Shown here in pieces: positions 2,475 through 45,029 of a stretch of 64,000 nucleotides of DNA. A program made the position numbers and the translations under genes. This stretch comes from Alphaproteobacteria bacterium (lineage in GTDB: Bacteria; Pseudomonadota; Alphaproteobacteria; SHVR01): assembly GCA_009694185.1 (NCBI GenBank), contig SHVR01000008.1, positions 2,350-66,349 on the forward strand. Direction: 5' to 3'. Below the pieces are notes generated by a model. That model was given only the letters and a program-made list of their open reading frames with translations. It searched no databases and had not been told where the DNA came from. How positions within the stretch are numbered: position 1 is the stretch's first letter; each line of letters opens with the position of its first letter.

Positions 2475-3704
2475 TCAGCTCTTCTTGGCGAACGGGCAGT
2501 TGCCCTGTTCGATCGGCCGGAACGCCTCGGCCGCCGGAATCGTGCGCACCAGCTTGTAATAGTCCCAGGGGCCCTTGGACTCGGCGGGCTTCTTCACCTG
2601 GAAGAGGTACATGTCGCGGATCGTCCGCCCGTCCTCGCGCACCCGGCCGCCCTTGGTGAAGAAGTCGTCGACCGGCAGCTCTTTCATCTTGGCGGCGACC
2701 GCCTTGGCCTCGTCGGTGCCGGCCGCCTGGATCGCCTTCAGATAGTGGGTCACCGCGCCGTAGACGCCGGCATGGATCATGTTTGGGTGCTGCTTGTGGC
2801 GCTGGGTGAAGCGCTTGGTCCAGGCGCGGGTCTCATCGGTCAGATCCCAGTAGAATGCCTCGGTCAGCATCAGGCCCTGGGCCACATCGAGGCCGAGGGC
2901 ATGCACGTCGTTCAGGAACACCAGGAGGCCGGCCAAATTCTGGCCGCCCTTGACGATGCCGAACTCGGCCGCCTGCTTGATCGAGTTGGTGGTGTCGGTG
3001 CCGGCATTGGCGAGGCCGATGATCTTCGCCTTGGACGCCTGGGCTTGCAGCAGGAAGGACGAGAAGTCGGACGAGTTCAGCGGATGGCGCACGACGCCCA
3101 GCACCTTGCCGCCATTGGCCTTCACCACGTCGGTGGTATCCTTCTCGAGCGCATGGCCGAAAGCGTAGTCCGCCGTCAGGAAGAACCAGCTATCGCCGCC
3201 GGCCAGCACCGTCGCCTTGCCGGTACCATTCGCCAAAGCCCAAGTGTCGTAGGTCCAGTGGATGCCGGTCGGCGAGCATTTGTCGCTCGTCAAGGCGGAG
3301 GAGGCGGCGCCAGAGATCAGCAGCATGCGGTTCTTGTTCTTGGTGATCTCCTGGACCGCGAGTGCCACGGACGAGGTCGGCACATCGGCGATCGCATCCA
3401 CCTTTTCCACGTCGATCCAGCGGTTGGCGACCGTCGAGCCCACATCGGGCTTGTTCTGATGGTCGGCGAAGACGATTTCGATCGGCTTGCCGAGCACCTT
3501 GCCGCCGAAATCCTCGGCCGCCAGCCTGGCGGCGATGACCGAGCCCTGGCCGGTTAAATCGGCGTAGAGGCTCGCCTGGTCGTTGAGCACGCCGATTTTC
3601 ACCACGTCGTCCGATATCTGGGCCTGGGCATTACCCAGCGTCGCGCCCAGGGCCACAAGGCTTGCCAGGGTCAGTTTGAGCCACATTGCTAAGGTCCTCC
3701 TCAT
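2475..3704 (-). CDS. ABC transporter substrate-binding protein (LivK/amide-urea type periplasmic binding protein)
   Basis: 409 aa with an N-terminal signal peptide (LASLVALGATLGNAQA). Lies between the permease and ATPase genes. The start could instead be the second Met at 3686. Confidence 0.85.
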   Translation of the reverse strand: MRRTLAMWLKLTLASLVALGATLGNAQAQISDDVVKIGVLNDQASLYADLTGQGSVIAARLAAEDFGGKVLGKPIEIVFADHQNKPDVGSTVANRWIDVEKVDAIADVPTSSVALAVQEITKNKNRMLLISGAASSALTSDKCSPTGIHWTYDTWALANGTGKATVLAGGDSWFFLTADYAFGHALEKDTTDVVKANGGKVLGVVRHPLNSSDFSSFLLQAQASKAKIIGLANAGTDTTNSIKQAAEFGIVKGGQNLAGLLVFLNDVHALGLDVAQGLMLTEAFYWDLTDETRAWTKRFTQRHKQHPNMIHAGVYGAVTHYLKAIQAAGTDEAKAVAAKMKELPVDDFFTKGGRVREDGRTIRDMYLFQVKKPAESKGPWDYYKLVRTIPAAEAFRPIEQGNCPFAKKS

Positions 3705-3717
3705 TTTGAGTCGGCAA

Positions 3718-4440
3718 TTAGACGCCGAGAAAATTATGCAGTTTTTCCATGTTCGCCGGTATGTCTTCGGTGCGCAGCATGTCCACGACGCGGCCGTCCT
3801 CCATGATGTAGTGGCGATCGGCGACGGTGGCCGCGAAGCGGAAATTCTGTTCGACCAGGAGGACGGTGAAGCCGCGCGCCTTGAGGTCGCGGATCACGTC
3901 GCCGATTTTCTGGACGATGACCGGGGCGAGACCCTCGGTCGGCTCGTCGAGCAGGAGGAGCGTGGCACCCGTGCGCAAGATGCGCCCGATGGCCAGCATT
4001 TGTTGTTCGCCGCCCGAGAGCTTGGTGCCCTGGCTCCGGCGGCGCTCGGCCAGGTTGGGAAACAGCGTATAGATCTCGGCGAGCGTCATGCCGCCGGGCC
4101 GCACCACCGGCGGCAGCAGCATGTTCTCCTCGACGCTCAGGCTCGCGAAGATGCCGCGTTCCTCGGGGCAGATCGCAATGCCCAGGCGGGCGATGACGTT
4201 GGAGGCGAGGGCGATGATTTCCTTGCCGTCATAGCGGACCGAGCCGGTGCGCCGGGCGACCATGCCCATGATCGACTTGAGGGTTGTCGTCTTGCCGGCG
4301 CCGTTGCGGCCCAAAAGCGTGACCACTTCCCCCTCGGCCACCTCGATGGTCACACCATGCAGGACATGGGACTCGCCATAGAAGGCTTCCAGATTGTCGA
4401 CCTTAAGCAAGTCCCTTCCCATCCGGGGCGTGTCACGCAT
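3718..4440 (-). CDS. ABC transporter ATP-binding protein (LivF-type)
   Basis: Walker A GRNGAGKTT, signature LSGGEQQ and Walker B LLLLDEP. I chose the start at the Met preceded by GGGGA, which overlaps the upstream stop by 8 nt. Confidence 0.85.
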   Translation of the reverse strand: MRDTPRMGRDLLKVDNLEAFYGESHVLHGVTIEVAEGEVVTLLGRNGAGKTTTLKSIMGMVARRTGSVRYDGKEIIALASNVIARLGIAICPEERGIFASLSVEENMLLPPVVRPGGMTLAEIYTLFPNLAERRRSQGTKLSGGEQQMLAIGRILRTGATLLLLDEPTEGLAPVIVQKIGDVIRDLKARGFTVLLVEQNFRFAATVADRHYIMEDGRVVDMLRTEDIPANMEKLHNFLGV

Positions 4441-5188
4441 GGCCGGTCCCCACATAGGCTTCGATGACCTGCGGGTTCTTGGACACGGTGGTGTAGGGGC
4501 CTTCGGCCAAGATCTCGCCGCGTTGAAGGACGGTGATGCTATCCGAGATATCGGCGACGACGCTCATATTGTGCTCGACCATCAGCACGGTGCGGTTTTT
4601 GGCGACGCGGCGCACCAGATCGCTGATCCGGCCGATATCCTCGTGGGCGAGGCCGGACATGGGCTCGTCGAGCAGCAGCATCTCGGGCTCGAGGGCGAGG
4701 GTGGTCGCGATCTCGAGCGCGCGCTTGCGGCCATAGGCGAGCTCGCCTGCCTGCACCTCGGCAAAGCTGGCGATGCCGACCGACTCCAGCAGCTCGTCGG
4801 CGCGGCCATTCAAACGGTCAAGGTCCGACTCCGGCCGCCAGAAATGGAAGGAATTGCCGAGCTTGCGTTGCAGCGCCACGCGCACATTCTCGCGCACGGT
4901 AAGATGGGGAAAGACCGCGGATATCTGGAACGAGCGCACGAGGCCGCTCCGCGCGATGGCGGCGGGCCGGGCCGCCGTGATGTCGCGGCCGTTATAGGCG
5001 ATGCGCCCCTGGGTTGGTTGGAGGAATTTGGTCAGCAGATTGAAGACGGTCGTCTTGCCGGCGCCGTTCGGGCCGATGAGCGCGTGGATGGTATGCCGGC
5101 GGACCTTCAGGGAAACTTCGCGGACAGCCACGAAACCCTTGAATTCCTTGGTCAACCCACTGGTCTCTAGGATCGTGTCGTCGGCCAT
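4433..5188 (-). CDS. ABC transporter ATP-binding protein (LivG-type)
   Basis: Walker A GPNGAGKTT, LAYGRKRALE and LLLLDEP. The start is set at MADDTILETSGL. The longer ORF to 5308 looks like a spurious extension. Confidence 0.85.
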   Translation of the reverse strand: MADDTILETSGLTKEFKGFVAVREVSLKVRRHTIHALIGPNGAGKTTVFNLLTKFLQPTQGRIAYNGRDITAARPAAIARSGLVRSFQISAVFPHLTVRENVRVALQRKLGNSFHFWRPESDLDRLNGRADELLESVGIASFAEVQAGELAYGRKRALEIATTLALEPEMLLLDEPMSGLAHEDIGRISDLVRRVAKNRTVLMVEHNMSVVADISDSITVLQRGEILAEGPYTTVSKNPQVIEAYVGTGHA

Positions 5189-5369
5189 TCCCGTGCCTGT
5201 GCGGTCGCGCCCGCCCGGCCCTGCCGATACCGTCAATCGGCGAGCCGGGTTTTTGTTGCGTCGAGCGGCTGAAACTAGCGATGTTCCGCCAGGTTTATCA
5301 AGTGGCACCGGAATTTGGGCGAGAGGGGGCGGAGATGGCGGATGGATTGCTGGCGGGCGAGACGGCCTT

Positions 5370-5605
5370 GGTGACGGGCGGCTCGAGATGATCTGCGTCG
5401 ATGGCGGCTCGGGCTTGCTCGCCAGCTTGCCGACGGCTTATCCCGGCATTGCCGTGCGGCGCTGCTGGGCGCACAAGATCAGGAACGTCCTCAACAAGGT
5501 ACGCAAGACCGACCACCCGGCCGTCAAGGCCGGCCTCCACGCCATCATGAATGCCGCGACCCGTCGCAAGGCCCAAGTCGCCGCGCGCCGCTTCGCCGGC
5601 AGGGT
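5370..5605 (+). pseudogene. IS256/mutator-family transposase fragment (about 80 internal residues only)
   Basis: ORF 5001..5711 reads LEMICVDGGSGLLASLPTAYPGIAVRRCWAHKIRNVLNKVRKTDHPAVKAGLHAIMNAATRRKAQVAARRFA. This resembles the DDE-core signature of IS256-type transposases, and the flanking sequence is unrelated. Confidence 0.6.
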
Positions 5606-5665
5606 GGTATACTCCGGTCTCGCCTTGCATGATGGGGTGTCATCCGGCGTAACGGAGCAAGCAGC

Positions 5666-6511
5666 ATGCGGCGGCGGCGGTTCGGCTACATTCGAGGTGA
5701 AGTCGCGCTGATCGGCCAGGGCACCTGGTATCTCGAGAAGGCCGATCGCGCGTCCGCGATCGCCGCTCTCCGCCGGGGGCTCGATCTCGGGATGACCCAT
5801 ATCGACACGGCGGAGCTGTACGGCTCCGGCGCCGCCGAGGCCATTGTCGGCGAGGCCATTGTCGGGCGGCGCGACGAGGTTTTCCTCGTTTCCAAGGTGC
5901 TGCCGCAAAACGCGTCCCGAACCGAGACCAAGGCGGCTTGCGAGCGATCGCTCCGCCACCTCAAAACCGACCGGCTGGACTGCTATCTGCTGCATTGGCG
6001 CGGGCCATATGCCCTGGCAGAGACCATTGCCGCCTTCGATGAGCTCGAACGCGAAGGCAAGATCCTGTCATTCGGTGTCAGCAATTTCGATGTCGCCGAT
6101 CTGGAAGAGGCATGGGCGATCGCCGGGAAAGGCCGGATCGCCTGCAACCAGGTTCTTTATCATTTGGAGCAGCGCGCGATCGAACATGCGGTGATCCCCT
6201 GGTGCGAGAAGCACAATGTGGCGGTTGTCGGCTACAGCCCCTTCGGTCACCGGGCTTTTCCGGGCCCGCGCACGGCCGGTGGCCGCGTGCTCGCCGACAT
6301 CGCCCGAGCGCTGGATGCAACGCCCCGCCAGGTGGCGCTCGCCTTTCTCGTGCGACTTTCGCCGCTGTTCGCCATACCGAAGGCAGCGAATGCCGAGCAC
6401 ACCGCGGAGAACGCGCGCGCGGGATCGCCGGGTCTATCGGATGCCGACGTTGCCCGCATCGACGCCGCATTCCCCCGTGGCCCCCGCCCGCGCTCGCTGC
6501 CGCTGCTGTAA
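5666..6511 (+). CDS. aldo/keto reductase
   Basis: 281 aa with LIGQGTW, GMTHIDTAELYG, LDCYLLHW and GVSNF motifs of the AKR family. Confidence 0.85.
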   Translation: MRRRRFGYIRGEVALIGQGTWYLEKADRASAIAALRRGLDLGMTHIDTAELYGSGAAEAIVGEAIVGRRDEVFLVSKVLPQNASRTETKAACERSLRHLKTDRLDCYLLHWRGPYALAETIAAFDELEREGKILSFGVSNFDVADLEEAWAIAGKGRIACNQVLYHLEQRAIEHAVIPWCEKHNVAVVGYSPFGHRAFPGPRTAGGRVLADIARALDATPRQVALAFLVRLSPLFAIPKAANAEHTAENARAGSPGLSDADVARIDAAFPRGPRPRSLPLL

Positions 6512-6527
6512 TATCTGGATTCCGCGC

Positions 6528-7004
6528 TCAATATTCGAAGATCAAGCAGGTCGTCGTGCCATGCGCGAGAATGCGGCCGTTCTTGTCCGTTAACTTTCCT
6601 TCGGCCGTGCCGATACGCCGCCCACAGGAAATGACCGTGCCCTCGGCCTTCACCAGGCCAGTCTCAGGGGTGACAGGCCGGACAAGAGAAATCTTGAACT
6701 CGAGCGTCGTTTGCGCGAAGCCCTTGTCCAACATGGACTGCACCGCGAGCCCCATGCAGCTATCGAGCAATGTTGCGGCAAGGCCTCCGTGAACGGTGCC
6801 GGCGGGGTTGAGGTGCCCCGCATGAGGCTCGGCGGCGGCAACGACGCGGCCCTTGGAAACCTCGACAATGTCATAGCCAAGGGTTTCCGCCATCGTGTTC
6901 AAGGGCAGGGTGCCATCGACGAGCGCCTGAACAAATTCGAGACCGCTCATGGCTCGTTTCCGGTCGTCATCGATGACGCCAAAGCGCTTCCCAACAGAAG
7001 CCAT
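6528..7004 (-). CDS. PaaI-family (hotdog fold) thioesterase
   Basis: Contains RFGVI...MSGLEFVQALVDGTLP...NPAGTVHGGLAATLLDSCMG, typical of PaaI thioesterases. I set the start at MASVGKRFG rather than at the longer ORF start 7127. Confidence 0.75.
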   Translation of the reverse strand: MASVGKRFGVIDDDRKRAMSGLEFVQALVDGTLPLNTMAETLGYDIVEVSKGRVVAAAEPHAGHLNPAGTVHGGLAATLLDSCMGLAVQSMLDKGFAQTTLEFKISLVRPVTPETGLVKAEGTVISCGRRIGTAEGKLTDKNGRILAHGTTTCLIFEY

Positions 7005-7092
7005 GAATGGCACTCCTACGTCGCTCAGGGCACCGCGCGCATGGTGTCGGGCGATTTCCCCCAGGGCCAAGCACGCTGCCACGAGTACCGAA

Positions 7093-7821
7093 TTATCGGC
7101 GGATAGACAAATCCAATTCCGCGGCAAGGACGCGCTCGCCGGTCCGGGTCACGTTCACGGCGCGTGTGCCATCGAGCCGCCGCACCCAGCCCCGCGCAAG
7201 GCAGCAACGGCAAATGGCAGCACCGACGAACCCCGCGATATGCGGGCGGCGCTCGCTCCAATCGAGGCAGGGACGACAAAACACCCGACCGCCGCGTCGT
7301 CCGCCGGCATCCCTCATGCCCTCATCCAAATCGACGCCGAGACGGCTTAGGAACCTGGCGCCTTCGGCGGTCAGCGCACCGCCGTCGGACGATAAGAGGA
7401 TATAATTGGCCGCCACCAATTTGTCGGCGATTTGTACGGCAAGCCAGCCGGCCAGATGGTCGTAACAGGTGCGGGCCCGGCGAAGTGCCGCGTCGCGCGG
7501 CCCGACCCGGACGACCTGGCGCGGGGATCGGTCGATCTCTCCCCGCCCCGCCGCGACCGCCATGATACTTTCGAGCATGTGCGCGACAGCGGTCGATGCA
7601 ATGCGATGATAGCGGTGCCGCCCCTGCTTCTCGACCGCGAGTAACCGGCCCTCCGTCAGACGCGCCAGATGCCCGCCGGCGGTTTGCGGAGTGATCCCGG
7701 CGGCCTGTGCCAATTCCTTCGCGGTCAAAGCCCGCCCATCCATCAGACCCACCAGCATATTGGCGCGCGCCGGATCACCGACGAGCGTCGCGGCTTCGGC
7801 GAATGCCGATGTACTCACCAT
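7093..7821 (-). CDS. ArsR-family winged-helix transcriptional regulator with C-terminal extension
   Basis: Reads LVGDPARANMLVGLMDGRALTAKELAQAAGITPQTAGGHLARLTEGRLL...GRHRYHRI, followed by a Cys-rich C-terminal domain (CRPCLDWSERRPHIAG). Confidence 0.75.
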   Translation of the reverse strand: MVSTSAFAEAATLVGDPARANMLVGLMDGRALTAKELAQAAGITPQTAGGHLARLTEGRLLAVEKQGRHRYHRIASTAVAHMLESIMAVAAGRGEIDRSPRQVVRVGPRDAALRRARTCYDHLAGWLAVQIADKLVAANYILLSSDGGALTAEGARFLSRLGVDLDEGMRDAGGRRGGRVFCRPCLDWSERRPHIAGFVGAAICRCCLARGWVRRLDGTRAVNVTRTGERVLAAELDLSIRR

Positions 7822-7946
7822 CGCGAGTTCGCTCCCGGCGCATGAAGCACTGTCAGCGATTATCCCTCGCCCGCGACCGGGCATGTTTCGGCGGGGGCCG
7901 AAGCATCAGCCGCGATCCTCATAGTAGTTAAAGAACAGCGTTCGGA

Positions 7947-8180
7947 GTGGATGACATGGCGCGCCTCGGTCTCCGGACGAGCCTGACACCATGGGACATT
8001 GCCGCACTCCGGTTCGGCGTCGGCGGACAGCTCTTGCTCCCCTACCTGTTGCGGAAGGGGCTGGCGATCGAGCGCCTCGGTTGGATCGGCCTGGCTGCCC
8101 TCGTGCTCGGGTGCGGCGCGCCCATGGTGTTGCTGGTGAACGCCGGCTTGATGTTCGCACCGGCGATCCCGCCACGCGGT
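7947..8180 (+). pseudogene. EamA/DMT-family transporter fragment (about 75 internal residues)
   Basis: LTPWDIAALRFGVGGQLLLPYLLRKGL...LGWIGLAALVLGCGAPMVLLVNAGLMFAPA resembles the first EamA repeat. There are stop codons upstream, and the frame runs into the CoA-transferase gene. Confidence 0.5.
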
Positions 8181-8258
8181 CGAATAAACGCCCGGCTTGC
8201 CGTGGCCGGACGGGCGGGCGAGGATGCGGCACGCAAGCATAGAACAGAGGAAACATTC

Positions 8259-9485
8259 ATGGCGGGACCGCTGGTTGGCGTCCGCGTTGTCGATCTGACG
8301 ACCGTGCTGTTCGGGCCCTATTGCACCCAGATCATGGCCGAAATGGGGGCGGACGTGATCAAGGTGGAGCCGCCGGGAGGCGACATCGGCCGCCAGGTCG
8401 GCCCCGCCCGCCATCCGGGCATGGCGGCGGGGCACCTGGTGCGCGCGCGCGGCAAGCGGAGTCTGGTGCTCGACCTGACCAAGTCCCCCGCCCATGACGT
8501 GCTCGGCCGGCTGACCGCCACGGCCGACGTGTTCATCCACAATATGCGGCCCCAGGCGGCGGACAAGCTCGGCATCGCCTATGAGCGGATCGTTCCGCAC
8601 AAGGCGGACATCGTCTATTGCGCGGCCGTGGGCTATGGCCGTGACGGCCCCTATGCCAGGAAGCCCGCCTATGACGATCTCATCCAGGGAGTCTCGGGCT
8701 TCGCCCATCTGATGGAGGGTCTGACCGGCGAGCCGCGCTACGCGCCGAGCGTGATTGCCGACAAGGTGAGCGGCCTGACCGCCCTCTACACCATCATGAT
8801 GGCGCTCTTCCACCGGGCGCGTACCGGCGAGGGCCAGGCGGTGGACGTCGCCATGTTCGAGAGCTTTACCAGTTTTGTCCTGATCGAACATATGCAGGGC
8901 CATATTTTCGATCCGCCCATGGGGCCGCCGGGCTATAGCCGCCTCCTCACACCCGACCGCCGGCCCTATCCGACCGCCGATGGCTATGTCTGCGTACTGC
9001 CCTATAGCGACCGCCACTGGCAGCGCTTCTTCGAGATTGTCGGCCGGCCCGACCTGGCGGCCGACCCGCGCTTTCGGACGGTGGCGAACCGCACGAACCA
9101 TATTGCCGAGCTCTACCGCAATGTCGGCGAAGAGATGGCCAAGCGAACCACGGCGGAATGGCTCGGGGCGTTCGATCGGGCGGATGTTGCCGCCATGCCG
9201 ATGAACCGGCTCGAGGACCTCTTCACCGACCCGCATCTCCAGGCGACCGGCTTCTTCGAGACGATGGACCATCCGAGCGAGGGCGCCATCCGCTACCCGC
9301 GCGCCGGCCCGGTCTTCTCCAAGACCAAGCCGGACCAGGCGTCGCCGGCACCCCTGCTAGGCGAGCATAGCGTGCCGCTGCTCAGGGAACTCGGCTTCGG
9401 TGCCGCCGACATTCGGGGATTGGTCCAGTCGGGCGTCACCCATGACGGGCGTGACGACGCTCCCGCGGCCGCCGCCCTGTCGTGA
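8259..9485 (+). CDS. CaiB/BaiF family (class III) CoA transferase
   Basis: MAGPLVGVRVVDLTTVLFGPYCTQIMAEMGADVIKVEPPGGD is a typical family III CoA-transferase N-terminus. An AGAGGA Shine-Dalgarno lies upstream of the ATG at 8259. Length is 408 aa. Confidence 0.85.
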   Translation: MAGPLVGVRVVDLTTVLFGPYCTQIMAEMGADVIKVEPPGGDIGRQVGPARHPGMAAGHLVRARGKRSLVLDLTKSPAHDVLGRLTATADVFIHNMRPQAADKLGIAYERIVPHKADIVYCAAVGYGRDGPYARKPAYDDLIQGVSGFAHLMEGLTGEPRYAPSVIADKVSGLTALYTIMMALFHRARTGEGQAVDVAMFESFTSFVLIEHMQGHIFDPPMGPPGYSRLLTPDRRPYPTADGYVCVLPYSDRHWQRFFEIVGRPDLAADPRFRTVANRTNHIAELYRNVGEEMAKRTTAEWLGAFDRADVAAMPMNRLEDLFTDPHLQATGFFETMDHPSEGAIRYPRAGPVFSKTKPDQASPAPLLGEHSVPLLRELGFGAADIRGLVQSGVTHDGRDDAPAAAALS

Positions 9486-10357
9486 AGGCCGCCGAATTCG
9501 CCTATGCCCGCGCTCTCTCTGTCGCCGACGCCGTGGCGCTTCTGGCGGCGGCGGCGGGCGAAGCCAAGCTCATCGCCGGCGGCCAGACCCTGGTGCCGCT
9601 GATGGCCATGCGCCTCGCCCGGCCGGCGCTCCTGGTCGACATCGACGGGATCGCCGAGCTGAACGGCATCGCCATGGTGGGCGACACGCTCCGGATCGGC
9701 GCCGGCACGCGCCAGGCCGAGATCGAACGCTCGGGCCTGGTCGGGCGCGAGGTGCGACTGCTTGCCCTTGCCATCGGCCATGTCGGCCATGGCCAGATCC
9801 GTAATCGCGGCACCATCGGCGGCAGCATCGCCCATGGCGACCCGGCGGCCGAGCTGCCGCTGGTTGCCGTCACGCTCGGCGCCACGTTGCTGACCGAGAC
9901 GAGCGCGGGCGCCGGCGAGATCAGCGCGCGCGACTTCTACCTGGGGCCCATGACCACGACTTTGCCGGCCGATGCACTCATTACCCGGATCGACTTGCCG
10001 ATCTGGCGTGGGCGCGTCGGCGCCGGTTTTCACGAAATGAGCCCAAGGCGGGGCGATTTCGCCCTGGCGGCGGCGGCGGCGCAAGTCGAATTGGATGGGC
10101 GCGGCCGATGCCGACGGGCTGTCATCGGCGTGGGTGGTGCCGCGCCGACGCCGATCGCGTGTGCCGATGCGGCGCGCCTGCTGGAGGGTCGCACGCTGGA
10201 CGACACCCTGATCGCCGCCGCCGCCTCGGCCGCCGCGGCCCTGACCGAGCCCGCCTCCGACAGCCATGGCAGCGCCGAATATCGCCGCCGGCTGACGGCG
10301 GTCTTGGTGGCCCGCGCGCTCAAAGACGCCGCCACCATGGCAAGAGCCGTGCCGTGA
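9482..10357 (+). CDS. xanthine dehydrogenase family FAD-binding subunit (CoxM-like)
   Basis: LIAGGQTLVPLMAMRLARPALLVDI and GTIGGSIAHGDPAAELP motifs. The GTG start overlaps the upstream stop as GTGA. Confidence 0.85.
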   Translation: MKAAEFAYARALSVADAVALLAAAAGEAKLIAGGQTLVPLMAMRLARPALLVDIDGIAELNGIAMVGDTLRIGAGTRQAEIERSGLVGREVRLLALAIGHVGHGQIRNRGTIGGSIAHGDPAAELPLVAVTLGATLLTETSAGAGEISARDFYLGPMTTTLPADALITRIDLPIWRGRVGAGFHEMSPRRGDFALAAAAAQVELDGRGRCRRAVIGVGGAAPTPIACADAARLLEGRTLDDTLIAAAASAAAALTEPASDSHGSAEYRRRLTAVLVARALKDAATMARAVP

Positions 10358-10839
10358 ACCGCCAGGCCGTGCGCCTTACGGTCAACGGCAAGCCCTGGCA
10401 TGGCGAGGTCCCAACCCGCCTCACCCTCGTCGATTGTCTGCGCGAGGAAGTGGGTCTCACCGGCACCCATGTCGGCTGCGAGCATGGGGTGTGCGGCGCC
10501 TGCTCGGTCCTGCTCGATGGCGAGCCGGTGCGGTCTTGCCTGATGTTCGCGGTGCAGGCGGATGGCCGGGCGATTACCACCGTCGAAGGTCTCGCCGCGC
10601 CCGATGGCGCGTTGAGCCCGCTGCAAGACGCCTTCTGGGAGTGCCACGCCCTGCAATGCGGCTATTGCACGCCGGGCATGCTGATCGCCGCGCACGCGCT
10701 CATCGCCCGCAATCCGGCGCCGAGCGACGGCGATATTCGCGAGGCGCTGGCCGGCAATCTCTGCCGCTGCACGGGCTACCAGCAGATCGTCGACGCCGTG
10801 CGCTTGGCCCGCCGGCGCATGGGTGAGGTGCCGCCGTGA
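10354..10839 (+). CDS. (2Fe-2S)-binding small subunit (CoxS-like)
   Basis: [16 protein letters not shown] and [10 protein letters not shown]...[11 protein letters not shown] cysteine clusters. GTG at 10354 overlaps the CoxM-like stop as GTGA. Confidence 0.85.
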
Positions 10840-13241
10840 GCGAGTATCGTTATGTCGGGCGGAAGCGCCGCACCAAGGAAGATCGCCGCTTCATCACCGG
10901 CCTCGGCCGCTATGTGGCCGACGTGACTTTGCCGGGCATGAGCCATGTGGCGCTGGTGCTCAGCCCGCATCCGGCGGCGCGCATCGGTGCGATCGACACG
11001 GCCGCGGCGCTGGCACTGCCCGGCGTGCAAGCGGTCGTCACCGGCGCAGAGATTGCCCGGCACACCAATCCGATCCTGCATGGTCTCGCCCTCCCTGGCG
11101 TGCGCTGGTATCCGCTGGCCGTCGGCCAGGTTCGCTATGTCGGCGAATGGGTGGTGGCGGTGGTGGCCGCCTCCCGCCACATCGCCGAGGACGCGGCCGA
11201 GCTGGTGCGGGTGGACTATGAGCCCATGGCCTGGGTCGGCGATCCCGAAGCGGCGTTGGCGCCCGGGGCCCCCCTGGTGCATCCCGACCATGGCAGCAAC
11301 TTGTTCTATCGCCGCACCTTCGTCTGGGGCGACGTGGCCGGCGATTTCGCCAAGGCGCACCACCGGCTTGCCTCGAAGGTCTATTGGGGACGCAGCGCCA
11401 CGGTGCCAATAGAGACCTTCGGCGTCGTCGCCAACTGGAACCGGGGCAACGATCTGCTGGATGTCTGGGCTTCGATCCAGATGCCGAAATATCCCGACCA
11501 GATGGCGCACTGCCTGCGCCTGCCGCTCAACGCCATCCGGGTGCATTACGACGTGGATGTGGGTGGCAGCTATGGCGTCAAGCGCGGCATCAAACATTCG
11601 GTGCTGGTGGGTTATCTGGCGCGCAAGCTCCTCATGCCCGTCAGGCTGATCGAGGACCGGCTGGAGAATATGGTGGGCGGTGACATGCACGGCCCCGACC
11701 GGCGTTTCGACGTGACGCTTGCCTTCGACGCTGACGGCCTGATCCGCTCCATGAAGATGCGCGCCCTCGACGATATCGGCTGCTATCCGGGTCGCTCGCC
11801 CTTGCAGCTTGCCAAGCCGGTGGGTGCCATTGTCGGCCCCTATCGCATCCAGAGCGTCGAATATGAGGCGGTCGCGGTCGCCACCAACAAGACGAGCCAG
11901 GTGGCGGTGCGTGGCTTCGGCCAGGCGCCGACCAACTATGCCATCGAAACCGCCATCGACCGGGTGGCGGCGCATCTGGGCATGGACCGCCTGGCGGTGC
12001 GCCGGCGGAACTTCATCCAGAGCCACGAATTTCCCTATCGCATCCCAAGCGGGACCGACTATGACAGCGGCGACTATGACGCCGTGCTGACCAAGACCGT
12101 GGCGCGCGCCAAGCTGGAGGCGCTGATAGCACGGCGCGACGCGCTTCGCGCCGAAGGCCGGCTGGCCGGCATCGGCTTCGCCACCTGCCTGGAGCCGAGT
12201 GGCGGCAATGGCGCCTTCGAGCCGCTGTTCAATCCCGCCAATGACACCACCACTTGGATGGAATCATGCCAGGTGAAAGTGGACGCGCTCGGCGGTGTGA
12301 CCGCGACCATCGCCACCTCGACGGCGGGGCAGGGCCATCAGACCCTGGTCGCGACCGTCACGGGCGAGGAGCTGGGCTTCGATCCCGACTGCATCCGGGT
12401 GGTGCACGCGGACTCACTCCAGGCTCTGCCGGGCAACAGCCCGGTCGCAAGCCGCATGGCGATCATGCTGGGGGGTGCCGCGGCGGGTGCCGCCCGCCAG
12501 ATCAAGGAGCGCGTCCTCGCCATCGCCGCCCACAATTTGCAACGCCCCGTCGACCGCCTCGTCTATCGGGAGGGCGCGGTCTTCGATCTGGACAATGAAC
12601 TCCGCACCCTCAACTGGGCCGAGCTGGTGCGCATCGCCCACCGCAAATATCACCAGATGCCGCCCGGCATGGAGCCGGGCCTCCAGGCGAGCTATGTCTG
12701 GGAAGTGCCGAAGGGCGGCACCATGCCGACGGCCGACGGCCGGGTGCAGATGTACCCCTGCTATTCCTTCGAATGTCACATAGCACTGGTGGAGATCGAT
12801 CGCGGCACCGGCCAAGTGGCGATCCGCGACTGGTTCATGGGCCATGATTGCGGCACGGTCATCAACCCGGACATCGTGCATGGCATGTCCTATGGCGGCA
12901 TCGCCCATGGCATCGGCGCCGCGCTCTATGAGGAGTTCGCCTATGACGAGAATGGCCAGCTCGTCGCCGGCAGCTTCGTCGACTATTTGCTGCCATCGGT
13001 GCATGAAATTCCGGAGATCGCGCTGGTCGATCACTGCACGCCCTCGCCGTTGACGCCCATGGGCCAGAAGGGCTCCGGCGAGAGCGGCTATCTGGGCGCG
13101 CCCGCGGCCGTGGCGAGCGCGGTTAACGACGCGCTGTCGCCGCTCGGCATCACCATCGACCGCCTGCCGATGCACCCCTCGCGCATCGAGCAGGCACTTG
13201 CCGACAAGCGGGCCGACATGGGAGAACGAGAGGGACCGTGA
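10836..13241 (+). CDS. xanthine dehydrogenase family molybdopterin-binding large subunit (CoxL-like, not CO dehydrogenase)
   Basis: 801 aa with the typical N-terminus YVGRKRRTKEDRRFITGLGRYVADV. The active-site loop reads AVRGFGQAP rather than the CODH AYRCSFR or AYRGAGR. Confidence 0.85.
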   Translation: MSEYRYVGRKRRTKEDRRFITGLGRYVADVTLPGMSHVALVLSPHPAARIGAIDTAAALALPGVQAVVTGAEIARHTNPILHGLALPGVRWYPLAVGQVRYVGEWVVAVVAASRHIAEDAAELVRVDYEPMAWVGDPEAALAPGAPLVHPDHGSNLFYRRTFVWGDVAGDFAKAHHRLASKVYWGRSATVPIETFGVVANWNRGNDLLDVWASIQMPKYPDQMAHCLRLPLNAIRVHYDVDVGGSYGVKRGIKHSVLVGYLARKLLMPVRLIEDRLENMVGGDMHGPDRRFDVTLAFDADGLIRSMKMRALDDIGCYPGRSPLQLAKPVGAIVGPYRIQSVEYEAVAVATNKTSQVAVRGFGQAPTNYAIETAIDRVAAHLGMDRLAVRRRNFIQSHEFPYRIPSGTDYDSGDYDAVLTKTVARAKLEALIARRDALRAEGRLAGIGFATCLEPSGGNGAFEPLFNPANDTTTWMESCQVKVDALGGVTATIATSTAGQGHQTLVATVTGEELGFDPDCIRVVHADSLQALPGNSPVASRMAIMLGGAAAGAARQIKERVLAIAAHNLQRPVDRLVYREGAVFDLDNELRTLNWAELVRIAHRKYHQMPPGMEPGLQASYVWEVPKGGTMPTADGRVQMYPCYSFECHIALVEIDRGTGQVAIRDWFMGHDCGTVINPDIVHGMSYGGIAHGIGAALYEEFAYDENGQLVAGSFVDYLLPSVHEIPEIALVDHCTPSPLTPMGQKGSGESGYLGAPAAVASAVNDALSPLGITIDRLPMHPSRIEQALADKRADMGEREGP

Positions 13242-40656: not shown

Positions 40657-41670
40657 ATGGGTTATCGGGTCGCGGTCGTTGGTGCCACGGGCGCCGTCGG
40701 GTATCAGCTTCTCTCCATTCTGGCCGAGCGCCAGTTTCCCGCCGACGAGGTGGTGGCGCTGGCGTCCACCCGGTCGGCCGGCGGCGAGGTATCCTTTGGC
40801 GAGGACATCACGCTCAAGGTTCGGGACCTGGAGAAGTTCGACTTCAAGGGCGTCGATATCGCATTGTTTTCGTCGGGCGCGGCGATTTCCAAGCTGCATG
40901 CGCCGCGCGCCGCCAAGGCGAACTGCATCGTCATCGACAATAGCTCCGAGTTCCGCATGGAGCCGGACGTGCCGCTGGTGGTGCCGGAAGTCAATCCCGA
41001 CGCCATCGCGGACTATAACCAGCGCTACATCATCGCCAACCCCAACTGTTCCACCATCCAGATGGTGATGGCCCTGAAGCCGCTGCATGACTTGTCGCCC
41101 ATCAAGCGCGTGGTGGTGGCGACCTACCAGTCGGTCTCGGGCGGCGGCAAGGAGGCGATGGACGAGCTCTGGTCCCAGACCCGTGGCCTCTATCAGCTCG
41201 AGAACGCCAAGCCGCAACAGCACACCAAGCAGATCGCCTTCAACGTCATCCCGCATATCGACATGTTCATGCCGGACGGGTCGACCAAGGAAGAATGGAA
41301 GATGGCCGAGGAGACCAGGAAGATCCTGGACCCTGAAATCCTGATCTCGGCGACCTGTGTCAGGGTGCCGGTTTTCGTCGGTCATTCCGAGGCGGTGAAT
41401 ATCGAGTTCTGGGAGGCCATGGACGAGAAGGCGGCGAGGCGTGCCCTTGCCCAAGCGCCGGGCGTCGTCGTCGAAGACAAGCGCGACGATGGCGGCTATG
41501 TGACGCCGATCGACTGCGTTGGCGAGAATGCGGTCTATGTTAGCCGTATTCGCCGCGACCCGACGGTGGAGCACGGCCTCAATCTCTGGATCGTCTCCGA
41601 CAATCTGCGCAAGGGGGCCGCCTGGAACGCCGTCCAGATCGCCGAGAAGCTGGTCTCGGATTATCTCTGA
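40657..41670 (+). CDS. asd: aspartate-semialdehyde dehydrogenase
   Basis: VAVVGATGAVG, IANPNCSTIQMV (active-site Cys) and RVPVFVGHSE motifs. Confidence 0.95.
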   Translation: MGYRVAVVGATGAVGYQLLSILAERQFPADEVVALASTRSAGGEVSFGEDITLKVRDLEKFDFKGVDIALFSSGAAISKLHAPRAAKANCIVIDNSSEFRMEPDVPLVVPEVNPDAIADYNQRYIIANPNCSTIQMVMALKPLHDLSPIKRVVVATYQSVSGGGKEAMDELWSQTRGLYQLENAKPQQHTKQIAFNVIPHIDMFMPDGSTKEEWKMAEETRKILDPEILISATCVRVPVFVGHSEAVNIEFWEAMDEKAARRALAQAPGVVVEDKRDDGGYVTPIDCVGENAVYVSRIRRDPTVEHGLNLWIVSDNLRKGAAWNAVQIAEKLVSDYL

Positions 41671-41801
41671 GCGGGGCCGGGATACTATTTCGCATCGGGC
41701 GCCGCGGGCGGGATTAAGCCGTTTGGGCTTTGCCTGATAGGTGGACGTTTGGCCGTGCTCGCTCTGGCCATCGTCGTGCAGCCAATCTGGATCGAGTAAG
41801 C

Positions 41802-42212
41802 ATGGCGCGTCAACCGCAACAACTGCCGCCCCGAGTTCCCTTATCACCCGAGCAGATCAGAGCGGCCAGCTATGTCGGAAGTAGCGAACATAAGGTTAAG
41901 CGCTGGTGGGGTGGCCTGCCAGGCGCCTATGCCGGCCCGAACGGCAAAGCCACGCGACCGAAGAAGCAGCTGACGACAATTTGCCCGCTTACGACCGAAG
42001 CCGACCTTCTAAAGGCGACGGGGTGGGTGCGTGCCGCACTCACCGCCGGGCAGATGAGGCACTACGAGGGGGACAAGGACTTCCCGCGCCGTATTTGGTA
42101 CCGTGAAACGGCGACAGGCCAGTTGTGGACCGGCTACTGCGTAAACGGTGTTCAGGGCCAGTATAAGGGATGGCCTATTGAGGAGGACCAACGTGTTGCG
42201 GTATTCGGTTGA
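41802..42212 (+). CDS. hypothetical small basic protein (136 aa), first gene of a two-gene cassette
   Basis: Clean ORF in which about 30% of codons end in A or T, against a strongly GC3-biased host. The C-terminal motif is DKDFPRRIWYRE...GQYKGWPIEED. I could not assign a family. Confidence 0.6.
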   Translation: MARQPQQLPPRVPLSPEQIRAASYVGSSEHKVKRWWGGLPGAYAGPNGKATRPKKQLTTICPLTTEADLLKATGWVRAALTAGQMRHYEGDKDFPRRIWYRETATGQLWTGYCVNGVQGQYKGWPIEEDQRVAVFG

Positions 42213-43470
42213 ATGGCATGAGGATGCGTCCAATGCCGCGCCCGAGGAACGCGCGACAGTGGCCGATGTCAGGCTGGTCTTGCAGCAGCAGAACGTCTCA
42301 CTCCACCTGCGTGGAAACGAGAGCGCCGACCACCTCACGATCCCGTTGTACAGCTTGGCCGAGGGTTTGGCGCATGACTGGTGGACCTTGTTTGGGGGAC
42401 GTGATCGCGAGCTTTCGTTGATCAAACATCGAAGTGGCTATGCGGTGCCCGATCTGCGCATGAGCTTCGATGGAACCGTCTTCCAAATCTCGGCGCATCA
42501 ATGCACTTACCATAATCCGGACGTCCGATTCTGGGCTGGTCCGACCGAGGTCATGAGCCGGGACCCAGCAGAAGCCATCCTCAGCGACTTCGTCCAACGG
42601 GTCCTCGATAGGCTCAGCGCGCGTGGGGTGCTTGGAACGAGTGCCGCGCTTCGGTGGGCGCGCGTACAAAAATCCAGAGCCAACCCGGATGAAGCAGTTT
42701 TCTGCGAGGCGGCGGGTGCACTTGGCCGTGATCCTTACCAGATTGATGAACAAAGCACAGGACTGATCGCGCAGGCCGCCGCTTTGTTTGAAGGCGAAGC
42801 CCTACTAGAATTCCTCGCTGGTGCCGGTCCCGCAAACCAACCTGACCTTATGAAATGGGTCGACGCCGTCGAACGTCGCCCGCGATATAAGGCCCGGGTC
42901 GCCGAGCTTCGGCGGGTTGCCGCAGATACCGTTCGGGGGGCGCCGGAGCGTGACTTCGAAAAGAGCTGGGCTCTAGGTTACCGCCGAGCCAGGGCCATGC
43001 GCCGCGTTCTCAATCTCCGGGAAAGCGACCGCTTCCGCTCGTTCAGAACCCTGGCGGAGCGGCTCGGTGCGAGCCAATCCTATGCTCTAGCCGGCCCCGT
43101 GGATGGCTTGCGCGCGCTCCGAAGCGATCGAGCCGATGGTGCTTACATCCATATGCGCGCTCACGGCAACTCGAATGAAGCGAAGGCCGCGCACCTGTTC
43201 AGTTTTACGCGAGCCGTGGGAGATGTCGTCTGCTTTCCTGCCGAGGATAGGGCGCCCATAAACGAGCTCCATTCCGCATACCGGCAAGAGGCGGGACGCG
43301 CTTTTGCCGCGGAGTTCCTAGCGCCTATCGATGAGCTGCGTTCGATGCGCGAGGGTGGACGGGATACCGTTTCGATCGCTGATGAATTCGGCGTGTCTAC
43401 GGCGGTAATCGAGCGACAATGGGAAAATAGGGACAGGATCGAAGAGGTGCGCGCGCAGCAGCCAGCCTAA
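42193..43470 (+). CDS. hypothetical 425-aa protein with an unknown N-terminal domain and a degenerate ImmA/IrrE (COG2856)-like C-terminal domain
   Basis: GTG at 42193 lies 6 nt after GAGGAGG and overlaps the upstream gene by 20 nt. The C-terminus QEAGRAFAAEFLAPIDEL...IADEFGVSTAVIERQ resembles ImmA/IrrE. The expected HExxH position reads FTRAVGD. Confidence 0.65.
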   Translation: MLRYSVEWHEDASNAAPEERATVADVRLVLQQQNVSLHLRGNESADHLTIPLYSLAEGLAHDWWTLFGGRDRELSLIKHRSGYAVPDLRMSFDGTVFQISAHQCTYHNPDVRFWAGPTEVMSRDPAEAILSDFVQRVLDRLSARGVLGTSAALRWARVQKSRANPDEAVFCEAAGALGRDPYQIDEQSTGLIAQAAALFEGEALLEFLAGAGPANQPDLMKWVDAVERRPRYKARVAELRRVAADTVRGAPERDFEKSWALGYRRARAMRRVLNLRESDRFRSFRTLAERLGASQSYALAGPVDGLRALRSDRADGAYIHMRAHGNSNEAKAAHLFSFTRAVGDVVCFPAEDRAPINELHSAYRQEAGRAFAAEFLAPIDELRSMREGGRDTVSIADEFGVSTAVIERQWENRDRIEEVRAQQPA

Positions 43471-43488: not shown

Positions 43489-44328
43489 CTACGCGACCTT
43501 CGTGACCGCCACCAGCCGGGGCGGTGCCAGGACGGCATCGAGCGCCGCCAGGAGGGCGAGTTCGTCGCCCGCTTCCGCCTCTGTCGCCAGCAGGACAGCT
43601 TGAACGGTGGACGCCGCAAGCCCGAGTGCCCGCGCCGGGTCCGCCTTCTCCAGATAACGGCCGAGAAAGACGGCGGTAAAGAGGTCGCCCGCGCCATTCG
43701 AGGGCACGTTGATCCGGGGCACCGTCACCGACCAGACGGCGGCATGGGTGACGGCAAGGGTCTCGATCGCCGTTCCAGACCCAATCCCCGTGACGACGAC
43801 GAGGCGCTGTCCGCGCCCGAGCAGCAGCCGTGCCGCCCGGACCGCCTCGACGCGGCCGGTCACCGGCTGGCCGGTCAATTGCTCGAGCTCGAAGGCGTTC
43901 GGTGTCGCGAGGTCGGCCAGCGGCACCAGGCGGTCACGGAAGACCGCTGGGATGTCCGCTTGCACGAACAGGCCCGTGGGTCGATCGCCCATGACCGGAT
44001 CGCAACAATAGAGGGCTCCCGGATGGGCGGCGCGGACCGCGTCGACCGCTTCGCTCACCACCCAGCCGGTTTCGGCAAGGCCGAGATAGCCACTGAGTAC
44101 GGCGGCGGGGCGGGCCAGCAGTCCGCGTTCGGCAAGGCCCTGGAGCAGATCGCGCAAGTTCGCCGCCGGCACCGGGCGGCCGCGATAGCCGCCATGGGCC
44201 GGATGGTTGCTGAGCACCACGGTATCGAGCGGCCAGGCGCCGATGGCGAGCCGCTGGAGCGCTGGCACGGCAATGCTGTTGCCGACATGACCATAGACGA
44301 CCCGCGACTGGATGGAGAGGACAGTCAT
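43489..44328 (-). CDS. pdxY: pyridoxal kinase (PdxY-type)
   Basis: VLSIQSRVVYGHVGNSIA...WPLDTVVLSNHP...SGYLG...CDPVMGD...GAGDLF aligns with E. coli PdxY as I remember it. Confidence 0.85.
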   Translation of the reverse strand: MTVLSIQSRVVYGHVGNSIAVPALQRLAIGAWPLDTVVLSNHPAHGGYRGRPVPAANLRDLLQGLAERGLLARPAAVLSGYLGLAETGWVVSEAVDAVRAAHPGALYCCDPVMGDRPTGLFVQADIPAVFRDRLVPLADLATPNAFELEQLTGQPVTGRVEAVRAARLLLGRGQRLVVVTGIGSGTAIETLAVTHAAVWSVTVPRINVPSNGAGDLFTAVFLGRYLEKADPARALGLAASTVQAVLLATEAEAGDELALLAALDAVLAPPRLVAVTKVA

Positions 44329-44342
44329 CGCCCGAGAATCGT

Positions 44343-45029
44343 TCAGGCCGACGCCTTGTCGCGTATCCACGCGAAGCGCAGCGCCACTCCATCGAGGATG
44401 CGCTCGACGCTCACCTGGTTCGCGGCCATCACCGGTGCTCCGATCGTGGCGGTAAAGGCGCGAAACTCCTCGAAGCCCGTGTCCTTGTCGCTGAAGGAAT
44501 GAACCAGCAGCATGGCGTGCTTAGCTTGCTCGTGCTGCGCCTCGAACAAGGCCGACGCGGTGCGCCGGACGAGAGGATAGTTCAAGGCCTGGCAATCCTT
44601 GGGATCGACCGAGAGTGTTTGGCAAAGCGTATTCAGTCGTCGCTCGCGCGCCACGCTGTCTTTCCAATGGGCGACGCTCGGGCCGAAATCCTCGTCGCGC
44701 TTGCCTTCGACCGCGATCACGGCGCGCCCGTCCTTGAGCTCGGCGGACACCATCAGGTTGGTGTCGTTCGGGCCGCCGAACGAGCGAAGGTCGGTCTGCT
44801 TGACGAAAATCGCCTTGAGCAGCTTGATCCCGGCATAGGCCGGCACGGTCGCGAGCACCTGGCGCACGGCTGGCGGGAAGTCGCCCGCGTTGACCCAGGC
44901 GAAGGCCAGTTCGAAGGCACTGCTGCCCGGGAGCCATTGCGCATCCGGATCGGGGAGCGAGCGGCGTACGTCACGCGCGTCTATCACGGGGATGGTGTCC
45001 CCGAGGCGTTCGCGGAAAAAAAGTGTCAT
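44343..45029 (-). CDS. hypothetical protein with a PD-(D/E)xK nuclease-like core
   Basis: 228 aa. DTNLMVSAELKDGRAVIAVEGKRDEDFG fits a D...E-x-K motif. It also has a RRTASALFEA...AMLLVHSFS segment. GC is locally lower, about 52% in a sampled 60-mer. Confidence 0.55.
   Translation of the reverse strand: MTLFFRERLGDTIPVIDARDVRRSLPDPDAQWLPGSSAFELAFAWVNAGDFPPAVRQVLATVPAYAGIKLLKAIFVKQTDLRSFGGPNDTNLMVSAELKDGRAVIAVEGKRDEDFGPSVAHWKDSVARERRLNTLCQTLSVDPKDCQALNYPLVRRTASALFEAQHEQAKHAMLLVHSFSDKDTGFEEFRAFTATIGAPVMAANQVSVERILDGVALRFAWIRDKASA

Follow-up and report, generated by a model that had tools for sequence, protein, structure and literature searches.

A mobile pair of overlapping genes encoding a small basic protein and an ImmA/IrrE-like pseudo-protease, a putative toxin-antitoxin module

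The ImmA domain is a hub antitoxin of RosmerTA-like systems, in which it has numerous unrelated toxins as partners (Ernits et al., PNAS 2023, PMC10440598). The toxin gene comes first in 58% of these ImmA-hub systems (NetFlax node D25), and in RosmerTA systems the antitoxins with an ImmA domain act against phage (PMC10440598). TumE, in turn, is an experimentally validated family of translation-inhibiting toxins that is neutralised by the adjacent TumA (Durairaj et al., Nature 2023, PMC10584680). Here, a cassette of two overlapping genes (positions 41802 to 43470) was analysed in a stretch of 64,000 nucleotides (nt) from contig SHVR01000008.1 of an Alphaproteobacteria bacterium; this whole stretch is called the window. 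The first gene (gene 1) encodes a small basic protein, and the second (gene 2) a much larger protein with an ImmA/IrrE-like domain. The cassette is probably a type II toxin-antitoxin (TA)-like module, with gene 1 as the toxin and gene 2 as a pseudo-protease antitoxin, because its anatomy, its mobility, the asymmetry between both genes and the homology of gene 2 to the partner of a toxin all fit such a module. The TA or abortive-infection architecture suggested in the initial annotation of this DNA is the best available reading, and it was strengthened by the homology to TumE partners and by the absence of orphan copies of gene 1.

A conserved pair of overlapping genes

Gene 1 (41802..42212, + strand) is an open reading frame (ORF) with an ATG start and a TGA stop that encodes a putative toxin of 136 amino acids (aa). 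Gene 2 (42193..43470, + strand) is the ORF of a putative antitoxin or neutraliser of 425 aa, or of 424 aa when read from a TTG at 42196. Both overlapping frames, and the GAGGAGG that precedes gene 2, were confirmed in the sequence, and the public gene call of this 93-kb contig gives the same 136-aa and 425-aa products. There are two candidate starts for gene 2, the GTG at 42193, with a 20-nt overlap with gene 1, and the TTG at 42196, with a 17-nt overlap. Of these, the TTG appears the more likely true start, because MRYSVEW is the N-terminus of the family and 17 nt its commonest overlap. The GAGGAGG (42180..42186, + strand) was read directly in the sequence as the Shine-Dalgarno motif of gene 2, at a spacing of 6 nt to the GTG and 9 nt to the TTG. 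As this motif lies within gene 1, translational coupling of gene 2 is indicated.

The two genes remained neighbours across many genomes, a point that the initial annotation had put forward for checking. Gene 1 was located directly upstream of gene 2, and overlapping it, in 76/81 loci found via gene 2. Conversely, 79 metagenome loci were found via gene 1, and gene 2 began directly downstream in 78/78 of those with sequence there. Across at least eight phyla, and also on plasmids, over 150 loci kept the pair in the same order with an overlap of 17-38 nt. In 104 intact pairs the overlap was always 17, 26, 29 or 38 nt (17 nt in 69/104), and in 86 of them the start of gene 2 was preceded, at a distance of 4-18 nt, by a Shine-Dalgarno-like motif. 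Both proteins co-evolve, their identity matrices being correlated with r = 0.857 (Mantel p ≤ 0.001). No conserved third gene accompanied the pair, and the next largest cluster of neighbours was present in 9 loci.

When 185,579 genomes, one per species, were scanned, 117 relatives of gene 2 were detected. The best 80 of these 117 belonged to Alpha-, Beta- and Gammaproteobacteria, Verrucomicrobiota, Acidobacteriota (Vicinamibacterales), Spirochaetia, Chloroflexota (Dehalococcoidia/SAR202), Gemmatimonadota and Latescibacterota. Identity to gene 2 did not run parallel to taxonomy, with 66% to a Prosthecobacter and 51-58% to many Alphaproteobacteria, and the two nearest relatives inspected (79% and 69% identity) were found in unrelated genomic contexts. 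Some genomes contained two copies of the cassette, and plasmid copies were found on the conjugative pAt2 of Agrobacterium and on pTM2 of Tistrella. A compact two-gene operon kept as a conserved pair, and a patchy distribution with multiple or plasmid-borne copies, are general features of type II TA systems, and both were found here.

The large protein and its TumE-associated relatives

A set of 584 homologues of gene 2 was obtained, and their alignment showed a mean column identity of 57%. The AlphaFold2 (AF2) model of the protein, with a predicted local distance difference test (pLDDT) score of 94 and a predicted template modelling (pTM) score of 0.90, is made up of a beta-rich N-terminal domain (residues 1-143), a helical part (around 150-250), a helix-turn-helix (HTH)-like stretch (258-296) and a C-terminal alpha/beta domain of pseudo-M78 type (300-425). 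No family was matched at threshold in Pfam, NCBIfam, PADLOC or PHROGs, with no PADLOC match at E ≤ 1 for either protein of the cassette. Nothing significant was found among the sequences of the PDB, and no PDB structure was retrieved by Foldseek at E ≤ 0.001. For the N-terminal domain, the Foldseek leads were non-significant matches to Whirly/MRP and sliding-clamp folds (E 0.16-3). In short, neither protein of the cassette was placed in any family at threshold by profile searches.

The sole recurring family signal came from the C-terminal domain (43090..43467, + strand). It was matched by the Pfam profile PF06114 (Peptidase_M78) below threshold, with E 0.001 and 19.3 bits against a gathering value of 22, over residues 360-410 and profile positions 70-122. 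The same weak match recurred in 19/37 relatives of gene 2, with a best E of 1.4e-4. Foldseek retrieved the IrrE structures 3dte/3dti at a probability of 0.84 (E 0.23-0.26) and phage 'IrrE protein' models at 0.92-1.0 (E 0.036-0.08), in both cases with the whole multi-domain model as query, which lowers the scores. A weak structural match was also obtained with the M78-like domain of PrpR from M. tuberculosis (6cz6), which we take to be a cofactor-binding domain without protease activity. By these matches, the C-terminal domain of gene 2 appears to be IrrE/ImmA-like, a resemblance that is real though below threshold. Immediately ahead of it, residues 258-296 (42964..43080, + strand; ...FRTLAERLGAS...) gave a weak match to Pfam HTH_50 at residues 279-296 (E 0.017) and include model helices at 258-272 and 284-290, so that this stretch could represent a degenerate HTH preceding the M78-like domain.

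The initial annotation had proposed that the zinc ligands and the catalytic Glu of this domain were lost, and this was borne out. When the full protein sequence was scanned, HExxH was absent throughout. The helix located at its position reads F-T-R340-A-V-G-D344-V-V-C347-F (codons of R340-A-V-G-D344 at 43210..43224, + strand). In the canonical COG2856 motif, ExxANxFAxxLLxP, the Glu is the third zinc ligand. The next helix of gene 2 reads R364-Q365-E-A-G-R-A-F-A-A-E-F-L-A-P378, with the remainder GRAFAAEFLAP kept and a Gln at the position of that ligand (codon of Q365 at 43285..43287, + strand, placed by the motif register in the family alignment). As read from the alignment, other residues stand in place of the three metal ligands and of the catalytic base, and gene 2 should not be able to act as a zinc protease. 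The protein consequently falls outside Peptidase_M78/COG2856 by profile threshold, by HExxH and by the third zinc ligand.

The residues that took these places are nearly invariant. Among 93 non-identical relatives, R340 and Q365 were conserved in 93/93, G343 in 92/93, D344 in 90/93 and C347 in 89/93, and R-x-x-G-D was also present in a TumE-partner family and in a distant gene 2 paralogue of locus L080, both described below. Such near-invariant replacements are under strong selection, and therefore point to a new role of the cleft rather than to its decay.

A sister family was reached by tblastn of plasmids with gene 2. Its first member was a 529-aa protein from Rhizobium etli, annotated as an ArsR regulator, which shares 27.6% identity with gene 2 over 85% of its length and whose gene is preceded by a gene for a TumE toxin (PF20126). 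The family comprises at least 162 proteins of 520-535 aa, and an N-terminal winged helix of HVO_A0114/ArsR type was present in 22/22 members scanned. An overlapping tumE was located directly upstream in 4/4 loci, from Rhizobium etli, Bradyrhizobium, Xanthomonas and Castellaniella. Alignment of both families with hhalign gave a probability of 100% and an E of 1.4e-41 over 374 columns, covering residues 31-415 of gene 2, and the motifs WW-x-(I/L)-(F/Y), FC-x-(A/T)-AGALG-x-x-PY, R-x-x-G-D and RQ-x-x-GRAFAAEF-x-AP were common to both. By this comparison, the same large body accompanies at least two unrelated families of small proteins in a small-gene-first, overlapping layout, one of them being a known toxin family.

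Three distant gene 1-like genes were also examined. At L080, the gene 1-like gene is followed and overlapped by a full-length distant relative of gene 2 (hhalign probability 97.6%), and at L082 and L083 by a downstream ORF with a gene 2-type N-terminal domain, which in both cases is truncated at the edge of a short contig. The L080 locus (3279-11257), from a Candidatus Azotimanducaceae metagenome-assembled genome, contains within 8 kb a HigB/HigA-like pair, the distant paralogous pair (small gene 4127-4534, large gene 4510-5832), which adjoins the HigBA-like pair, and a gene 2 copy, and it looks like a small TA cluster.

The small protein and the pattern of gene loss

The product of gene 1 is basic, with an isoelectric point (pI) of 9.8 that rises to 10.7 in the 63 N-terminal residues. 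The basic N-terminal half contains the motif Y24-x-G-S-x-x-H30-K31 followed by C61, and the C-terminal part ends in G-x-Y-K-G-W-P. In the AF2 model, built from an alignment of 28 homologues, the C-terminal half is formed by a helix, three antiparallel strands and a second helix. The mean pLDDT was 76.6, with values above 90 for residues 64-136 and below 50 for residues 29-63, although the latter hold the best conserved residues of the protein. A sequence search found 254 homologues, and a profile run against 1.84 billion representative proteins (50% identity clusters) gave at least 150 matches, among which distant proteins of around 130 aa form a second tier. The motifs common to this superfamily are Y-x-G-S-x-x-H-K, an invariant Cys, (F/Y)P-x-x-(V/I)W and G-x-Y-(K/H)-G-(W/Y)-P.

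No family was found for gene 1 in Pfam, NCBIfam or PADLOC, PHROGs gave only a non-significant match (E 0.47), and the sequences of the PDB gave no significant one. Foldseek of the AF2 model against the PDB gave nothing at E ≤ 0.001, and chains of RelE, HigB and CdiA complexes appeared at E 1-4 with probabilities of up to 0.2. A lax Pfam scan of 66 superfamily members produced isolated weak matches without usable recurrence, among them DUF4258 (0.0011), a barnase-type Ribonuclease (0.12) and, three times, DUF1707. The likeness to small RNases that had been perceived in the sequence of gene 1 was consequently not sustained, its structural counterparts having E-values of about 1 or more. A relationship to TumE/DUF6516 was rejected, as hhalign of the gene 1 family against the TumE sequence gave a probability of 0.1%.

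A side observation was made with P0367, a lysin-like protein of 679 aa with CHAP and Amidase_2 domains. Four tandem repeats of it (NDIWFKDAKGYAWSGGF) matched positions 72-119 of the gene 1 profile with an E of 3.7e-5, so the beta-hairpin part of gene 1 may resemble cell-wall-binding repeats of the SH3b type. As relatives of gene 1, these repeats were set aside as a similarity due to chance or at the level of a beta-hairpin.

The presence of both genes was markedly asymmetric. No orphan gene 1 was detected in the 78 loci found via gene 1, whereas gene 2 lacked a detectable upstream gene 1 in L048, L058, L063 and L065, and the gene 2 copy of L080 had a mere remnant of 28 gene 1 codons in front. 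A full-length gene 2 stood beside a gene 1 damaged by frameshift, truncation, insertion sequence (IS) or reduction to an in-frame stub in L004, L010, L017, L020, L044, L068, L079 and L087. Of about 84 loci, 13 had a gene 2 but no intact gene 1. Damage events were compared by binomial tests that allow for gene 2 being a target three times longer. In the set found via gene 2, 13 events affected gene 1 only and 2 affected gene 2 only (p = 7e-7); in the set found via gene 1, which has the opposite bias, the counts were 5 and 4 (p = 0.04). Therefore, gene 1 is damaged or lost more frequently than would be expected from its length. The putative toxin gene was never seen without its partner, and an orphan antitoxin gene was tolerated, as in TA systems, save for four lineages with a frameshifted gene 2 that are weighed in the next section.

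Some of the damaged loci deserve separate mention. In L068 (9827-11317), about 60 codons from the start of gene 1, with the motif YVGSAEHK...WWGGLP among them, continue in frame into a full-length gene 2. An IS3-type element is inserted into gene 1 in L020 (8340-10017), and another one separates the two genes, both of them truncated, in L033 (8986-11038). In the Acetobacteraceae from peat bogs (L032, L099-L103), a G4/G5 homopolymer polymorphism (TTCGGGGGACGC vs TTCGGGGACGC) was observed in the codons of the invariant FGGRD motif, around 200 nt into gene 2, with a frameshift in four contigs from different samples and two other contigs intact. This could represent an assembly error, ongoing decay or an on/off tract.

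The roles of both proteins might also be reversed or enzymatic, with gene 2 acting as an enzyme through its Arg, Asp, Cys and Gln residues, or as the toxin, and gene 1 as a regulator, a substrate or the antitoxin. The conservation of gene 2 is enzyme-like, with invariant polar residues at the former active site (R340, D344, C347, R364, Q365, R369) and in the other domains. The basic N-terminal half of gene 1 is predicted with low confidence, as in many antitoxins and substrates, and the weak match to PrpR concerns a domain presumed to bind a cofactor. This arrangement is nevertheless improbable, as gene 2 occurs alone and outlives a decayed gene 1 while gene 1 never occurs alone, the opposite of what would be expected. 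Furthermore, the sister family has the same body fused to an antitoxin-type winged helix and encoded after a validated toxin family, and ImmA-domain proteins are the antitoxins in RosmerTA.

Mobility, proposed role and comparison with known systems

The GC content at third codon positions (GC3) was 0.664 in gene 1 and 0.646 in gene 2, compared to 0.846 in asd, 0.799 in the pdxY-like gene and 0.82-0.88 in leuBCD, sdhCDA and the DUF6946 gene of the surroundings. In total GC the contrast to asd was weak (0.609 vs 0.623), and the atypical signal resides in the third codon position. The atypical codon usage of the initial annotation was accordingly upheld for GC3 (0.65-0.66 vs 0.80-0.88 in the flanking genes), whereas the difference in overall GC was slight. 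Judged by composition, the codon usage of the cassette is clearly foreign, as would be that of horizontally acquired DNA, and the notion of a coupled, horizontally acquired cassette was supported by GC3 together with the internal Shine-Dalgarno motif.

The cassette is preceded by asd (40657..41670, + strand), whose protein is on record solely from this same 93-kb contig. The intergenic region from the asd stop to gene 1 (41671..41801, + strand) is the presumed location of the promoter, and neither a sigma-70-like site nor a terminator was detected above shuffled controls in this region and in the junctions. Neither an integrase nor a tRNA was seen at the junctions of the cassette, nor any convincing target-site duplication. 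The sole repeat that roughly brackets it is an imperfect direct repeat of 24 nt (19/24, 79%) at 41669-41692 and 43351-43374, the first arm of which begins in the asd stop codon and the second of which falls within the 3' end of gene 2. This repeat has probably arisen by chance. Downstream, a convergent PfkB/pyridoxal-kinase-like (pdxY-like) gene (43489..44370, - strand) ends 18 nt from the stop of gene 2. It is followed by the gene of a 228-aa DUF6946 protein (44343..45029, - strand; Pfam E 7e-51), the ORF of which overlaps the longest ORF of the kinase-like gene by 28 nt. Since its GC3 is host-like (0.82), the DUF6946 gene is considered to lie outside the cassette.

Low GC3, patchy distribution, identities that do not follow taxonomy, differing contexts, plasmid copies and pairs split by IS elements indicate that the cassette is a mobile, horizontally transferred and self-contained two-gene unit. 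A phage origin was rejected, as searches of GenBank phages and of IMG/VR returned no relatives.

These surroundings also bear on the idea of an ordinary, non-selfish regulatory or stress pair derived from switches of the ImmA/ImmR or IrrE/DdrO type, with no toxic component. Mostly housekeeping or metabolic neighbours, a C-terminal domain that is probably of the IrrE/ImmA fold family and the NCBI label 'ImmA/IrrE family metallo-endopeptidase' on some members would suit such a pair. We regard it as very improbable, given that the protease residues are gone in all members, that neither a partner repressor of the XRE type nor a conserved target gene was seen nearby, and that the sister family pairs with a toxin. 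The rare and patchy spread, the atypical codons, the plasmid copies, the disruption by IS elements and the frequent pseudogenes also speak against it. Both this explanation and that of reversed or enzymatic roles fit the pattern of orphans and decay, and the sister family, less well than a TA module does.

The immediate neighbours of the pair (145 in all) were a mixture of mostly metabolic genes with a few matches to defence models (GajA, AriA, AbiLi, AAA_15/21), so that enrichment in defence islands was weak. The location in defence islands or prophages considered in the initial annotation was therefore not supported. The absence of relatives in phages argues only against a phage origin, not against a role in defence. 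Indeed, the TA module could extend to an abortive-infection or phage-defence system in which gene 2, through its cleft or its N-terminal domain, is a sensor that releases or activates the effector encoded by gene 1. The ImmA-domain antitoxins of RosmerTA act against phage (PMC10440598), and the high conservation of gene 2 suits a sensor. Moreover, GajA, AriA and AbiLi were among the matches of the neighbours, and some copies are accompanied by defence-type genes, such as the Mrr genes of pAt2 and, at L020, a nuclease-like gene and an OLD/GajA-like ATPase gene between which the pair is placed. The sister system of Xanthomonas is likewise found in an integrase island with an OLD-like gene. Against this, PADLOC matched neither protein, only a handful of the 145 neighbours matched defence models, the majority being metabolic, and the copy in the window is inserted between housekeeping genes. 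We consider the sensor system unlikely on balance; an abortive-infection role is possible, and is not indicated by most contexts.

Two of these islands were inspected at the level of their genes. On Agrobacterium tumefaciens pAt2 (L084, NZ_CP048577.1, 3443-10635), the pair is located 3 kb from repABC and is flanked by a gene for a 762-aa Mrr_cat+nSTAND3 protein, a gene for a 327-aa Mrr_cat protein and a site-specific integrase gene, surroundings that look like a compact defence or maintenance islet. The sister module of Xanthomonas (L170/L171, 1845-9575) comes directly after a phage-type integrase gene, and the OLD-like gene of its island encodes a TOPRIM/AAA_15 protein.

The anatomy of the cassette, the conserved pairing, the loss of the catalytic residues, the homology to TumE partners and the asymmetric presence and decay are established by these data. 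For the TA module, we infer that gene 1 is toxic, that gene 2 neutralises it by binding and that the pair may serve in phage defence or plasmid maintenance. Gene 1 would be a small basic toxic effector of an unnamed family, for which RNA or translation is the leading guess, and only a guess, as target. Gene 2 would be translated by coupling to gene 1 through the internal Shine-Dalgarno motif and the overlap of 17-20 nt, and therefore the neutraliser would be made whenever the toxin is made. It would hold the toxin in an inactive complex, and the dead cleft, in which Arg, Asp, Cys and Gln are invariant, may have a role in binding instead of catalysis, a possible ligand being the conserved N-terminal segment of gene 1, predicted as disordered, or a trigger.

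A bolder and rather speculative version, to which we would give some but limited credit, holds that the dead-M78 body of around 400 aa is a hitherto unrecognised promiscuous scaffold for toxin caging and sensing, comparable to Panacea or to the active ImmA hub and combined with at least two unrelated toxin families, TumE and the new Y-x-G-S-x-x-H-K family with its subfamilies. Its cleft would then be a high-affinity pseudo-substrate site in an abortive-infection switch released by a trigger. The N-terminal segment of the toxin would be held in the cleft until displaced by a phage protein or a stress signal, and the toxin released would be of a new kind, acting on translation or RNA.

Several points weigh against a TA module. 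Gene 1 has neither a sequence match to any known toxin family nor a significant fold match. Gene 2 lacks a convincing DNA-binding domain for autoregulation, and it is unusually conserved for an antitoxin, with a mean column identity of 57% across phyla and invariant residues in all domains; this level of conservation would equally be expected of an enzyme or of a sensor. That the long TumE partner acts as an antitoxin is itself putative, as the validated pairs belong to another subcluster than the long partner, in a cluster group with TumE mostly downstream of its partner (PMC10584680). The decay counts carry some bias from the way in which the loci were found, and long reads, which are prone to frameshift errors, underlie some of the assemblies. 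Finally, gene 2 is frameshifted while gene 1 is apparently intact in four lineages (L032/L100-102, L107, L135, L161), one of them being that of the G4/G5 polymorphism; a strict TA relation predicts sequencing errors or crippled toxins in these cases.

If gene 1 is toxic, it would represent a new toxin family with hundreds of members in soil, peat and freshwater bacteria of at least eight phyla, a family that is unannotated in every library searched. The hub antitoxin ImmA/IrrE would have a long-lived branch incapable of zinc proteolysis, and therefore the 'cleave repressor or antitoxin' logic of Rosmer-type systems would not be general. The TumE-TumA superfamily is extended, some TumE toxins being partnered by the same large pseudo-protease body, and two independent toxin families would be available for testing how one scaffold neutralises unrelated effectors. 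Current annotation misnames the proteins as 'ImmA/IrrE family metallo-endopeptidase', 'ArsR family regulator' or 'hypothetical protein'.

In the literature on ImmA-type, TumE and pseudoprotease antitoxin systems, no description of this pair was found. The earlier statement that no such system is described was too strong, given the ImmA hub antitoxins (PMC10440598) and the TumE partners (PMC10584680), and applies to the pair itself. As far as found, this pair, the family of gene 1 and the conserved dead active site are undescribed. The module is real, widespread and unannotated; we class it with TA modules that have an ImmA-type partner, and what is new is the gene 1 family and the conserved pseudo-protease body that links it to TumE systems.

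Among the described systems, HigBA, HicAB and MqsRA, which have the toxin gene first, share with the cassette the gene order and the small basic first product; they show no significant similarity to it, and their partner is a small HTH antitoxin, whereas here it is a protein of 425 aa. Panacea (PanA, DUF4065), reportedly a hyperpromiscuous antitoxin domain (Kurata et al. 2022), offers only an analogy, that of one large neutraliser scaffold combined with unrelated toxin families. It has no sequence or fold relationship to gene 2, and the promiscuity of the gene 2 body rests on two partner families only. ImmA/ImmR of ICEBs1 and IrrE/DdrO of Deinococcus probably have a fold family in common with the C-terminal domain of gene 2, according to the sub-threshold PF06114 match and the Foldseek matches to 3dte/3dti. 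These systems combine a catalytic metalloprotease with an XRE repressor, and the cassette has neither; the partner of gene 2 is instead a small protein without an HTH, and the distribution is that of a mobile element.

The ImmA hub of RosmerTA (see also Millman et al. 2022) likewise consists of two genes in which an ImmA/IrrE-type protein is combined with diverse small toxins, commonly in toxin-first order. A small HTH is often found in front of ImmA, and the HTH-then-ImmA layout of RmrA-type proteins (PMC10440598) would match that of gene 2. No RosmerTA model of PADLOC matched gene 1 or gene 2, and gene 2 differs by its degenerate HTH and by a conserved N-terminal part of 250 residues with an unknown fold. 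The cleavage mechanism proposed for RosmerTA is inapplicable to gene 2, because HExxH and the Glu ligands are replaced.

In TumE-TumA, the toxin TumE/DUF6516 is unrelated to gene 1, so that the cassette does not belong to this system by its toxin, and the long partner has an N-terminal winged helix that gene 2 does not have. By its partner, however, the cassette is related to it, as the long HVO_A0114-winged-helix protein is homologous to gene 2 over its whole body and is encoded in the same small-first, overlapping layout.

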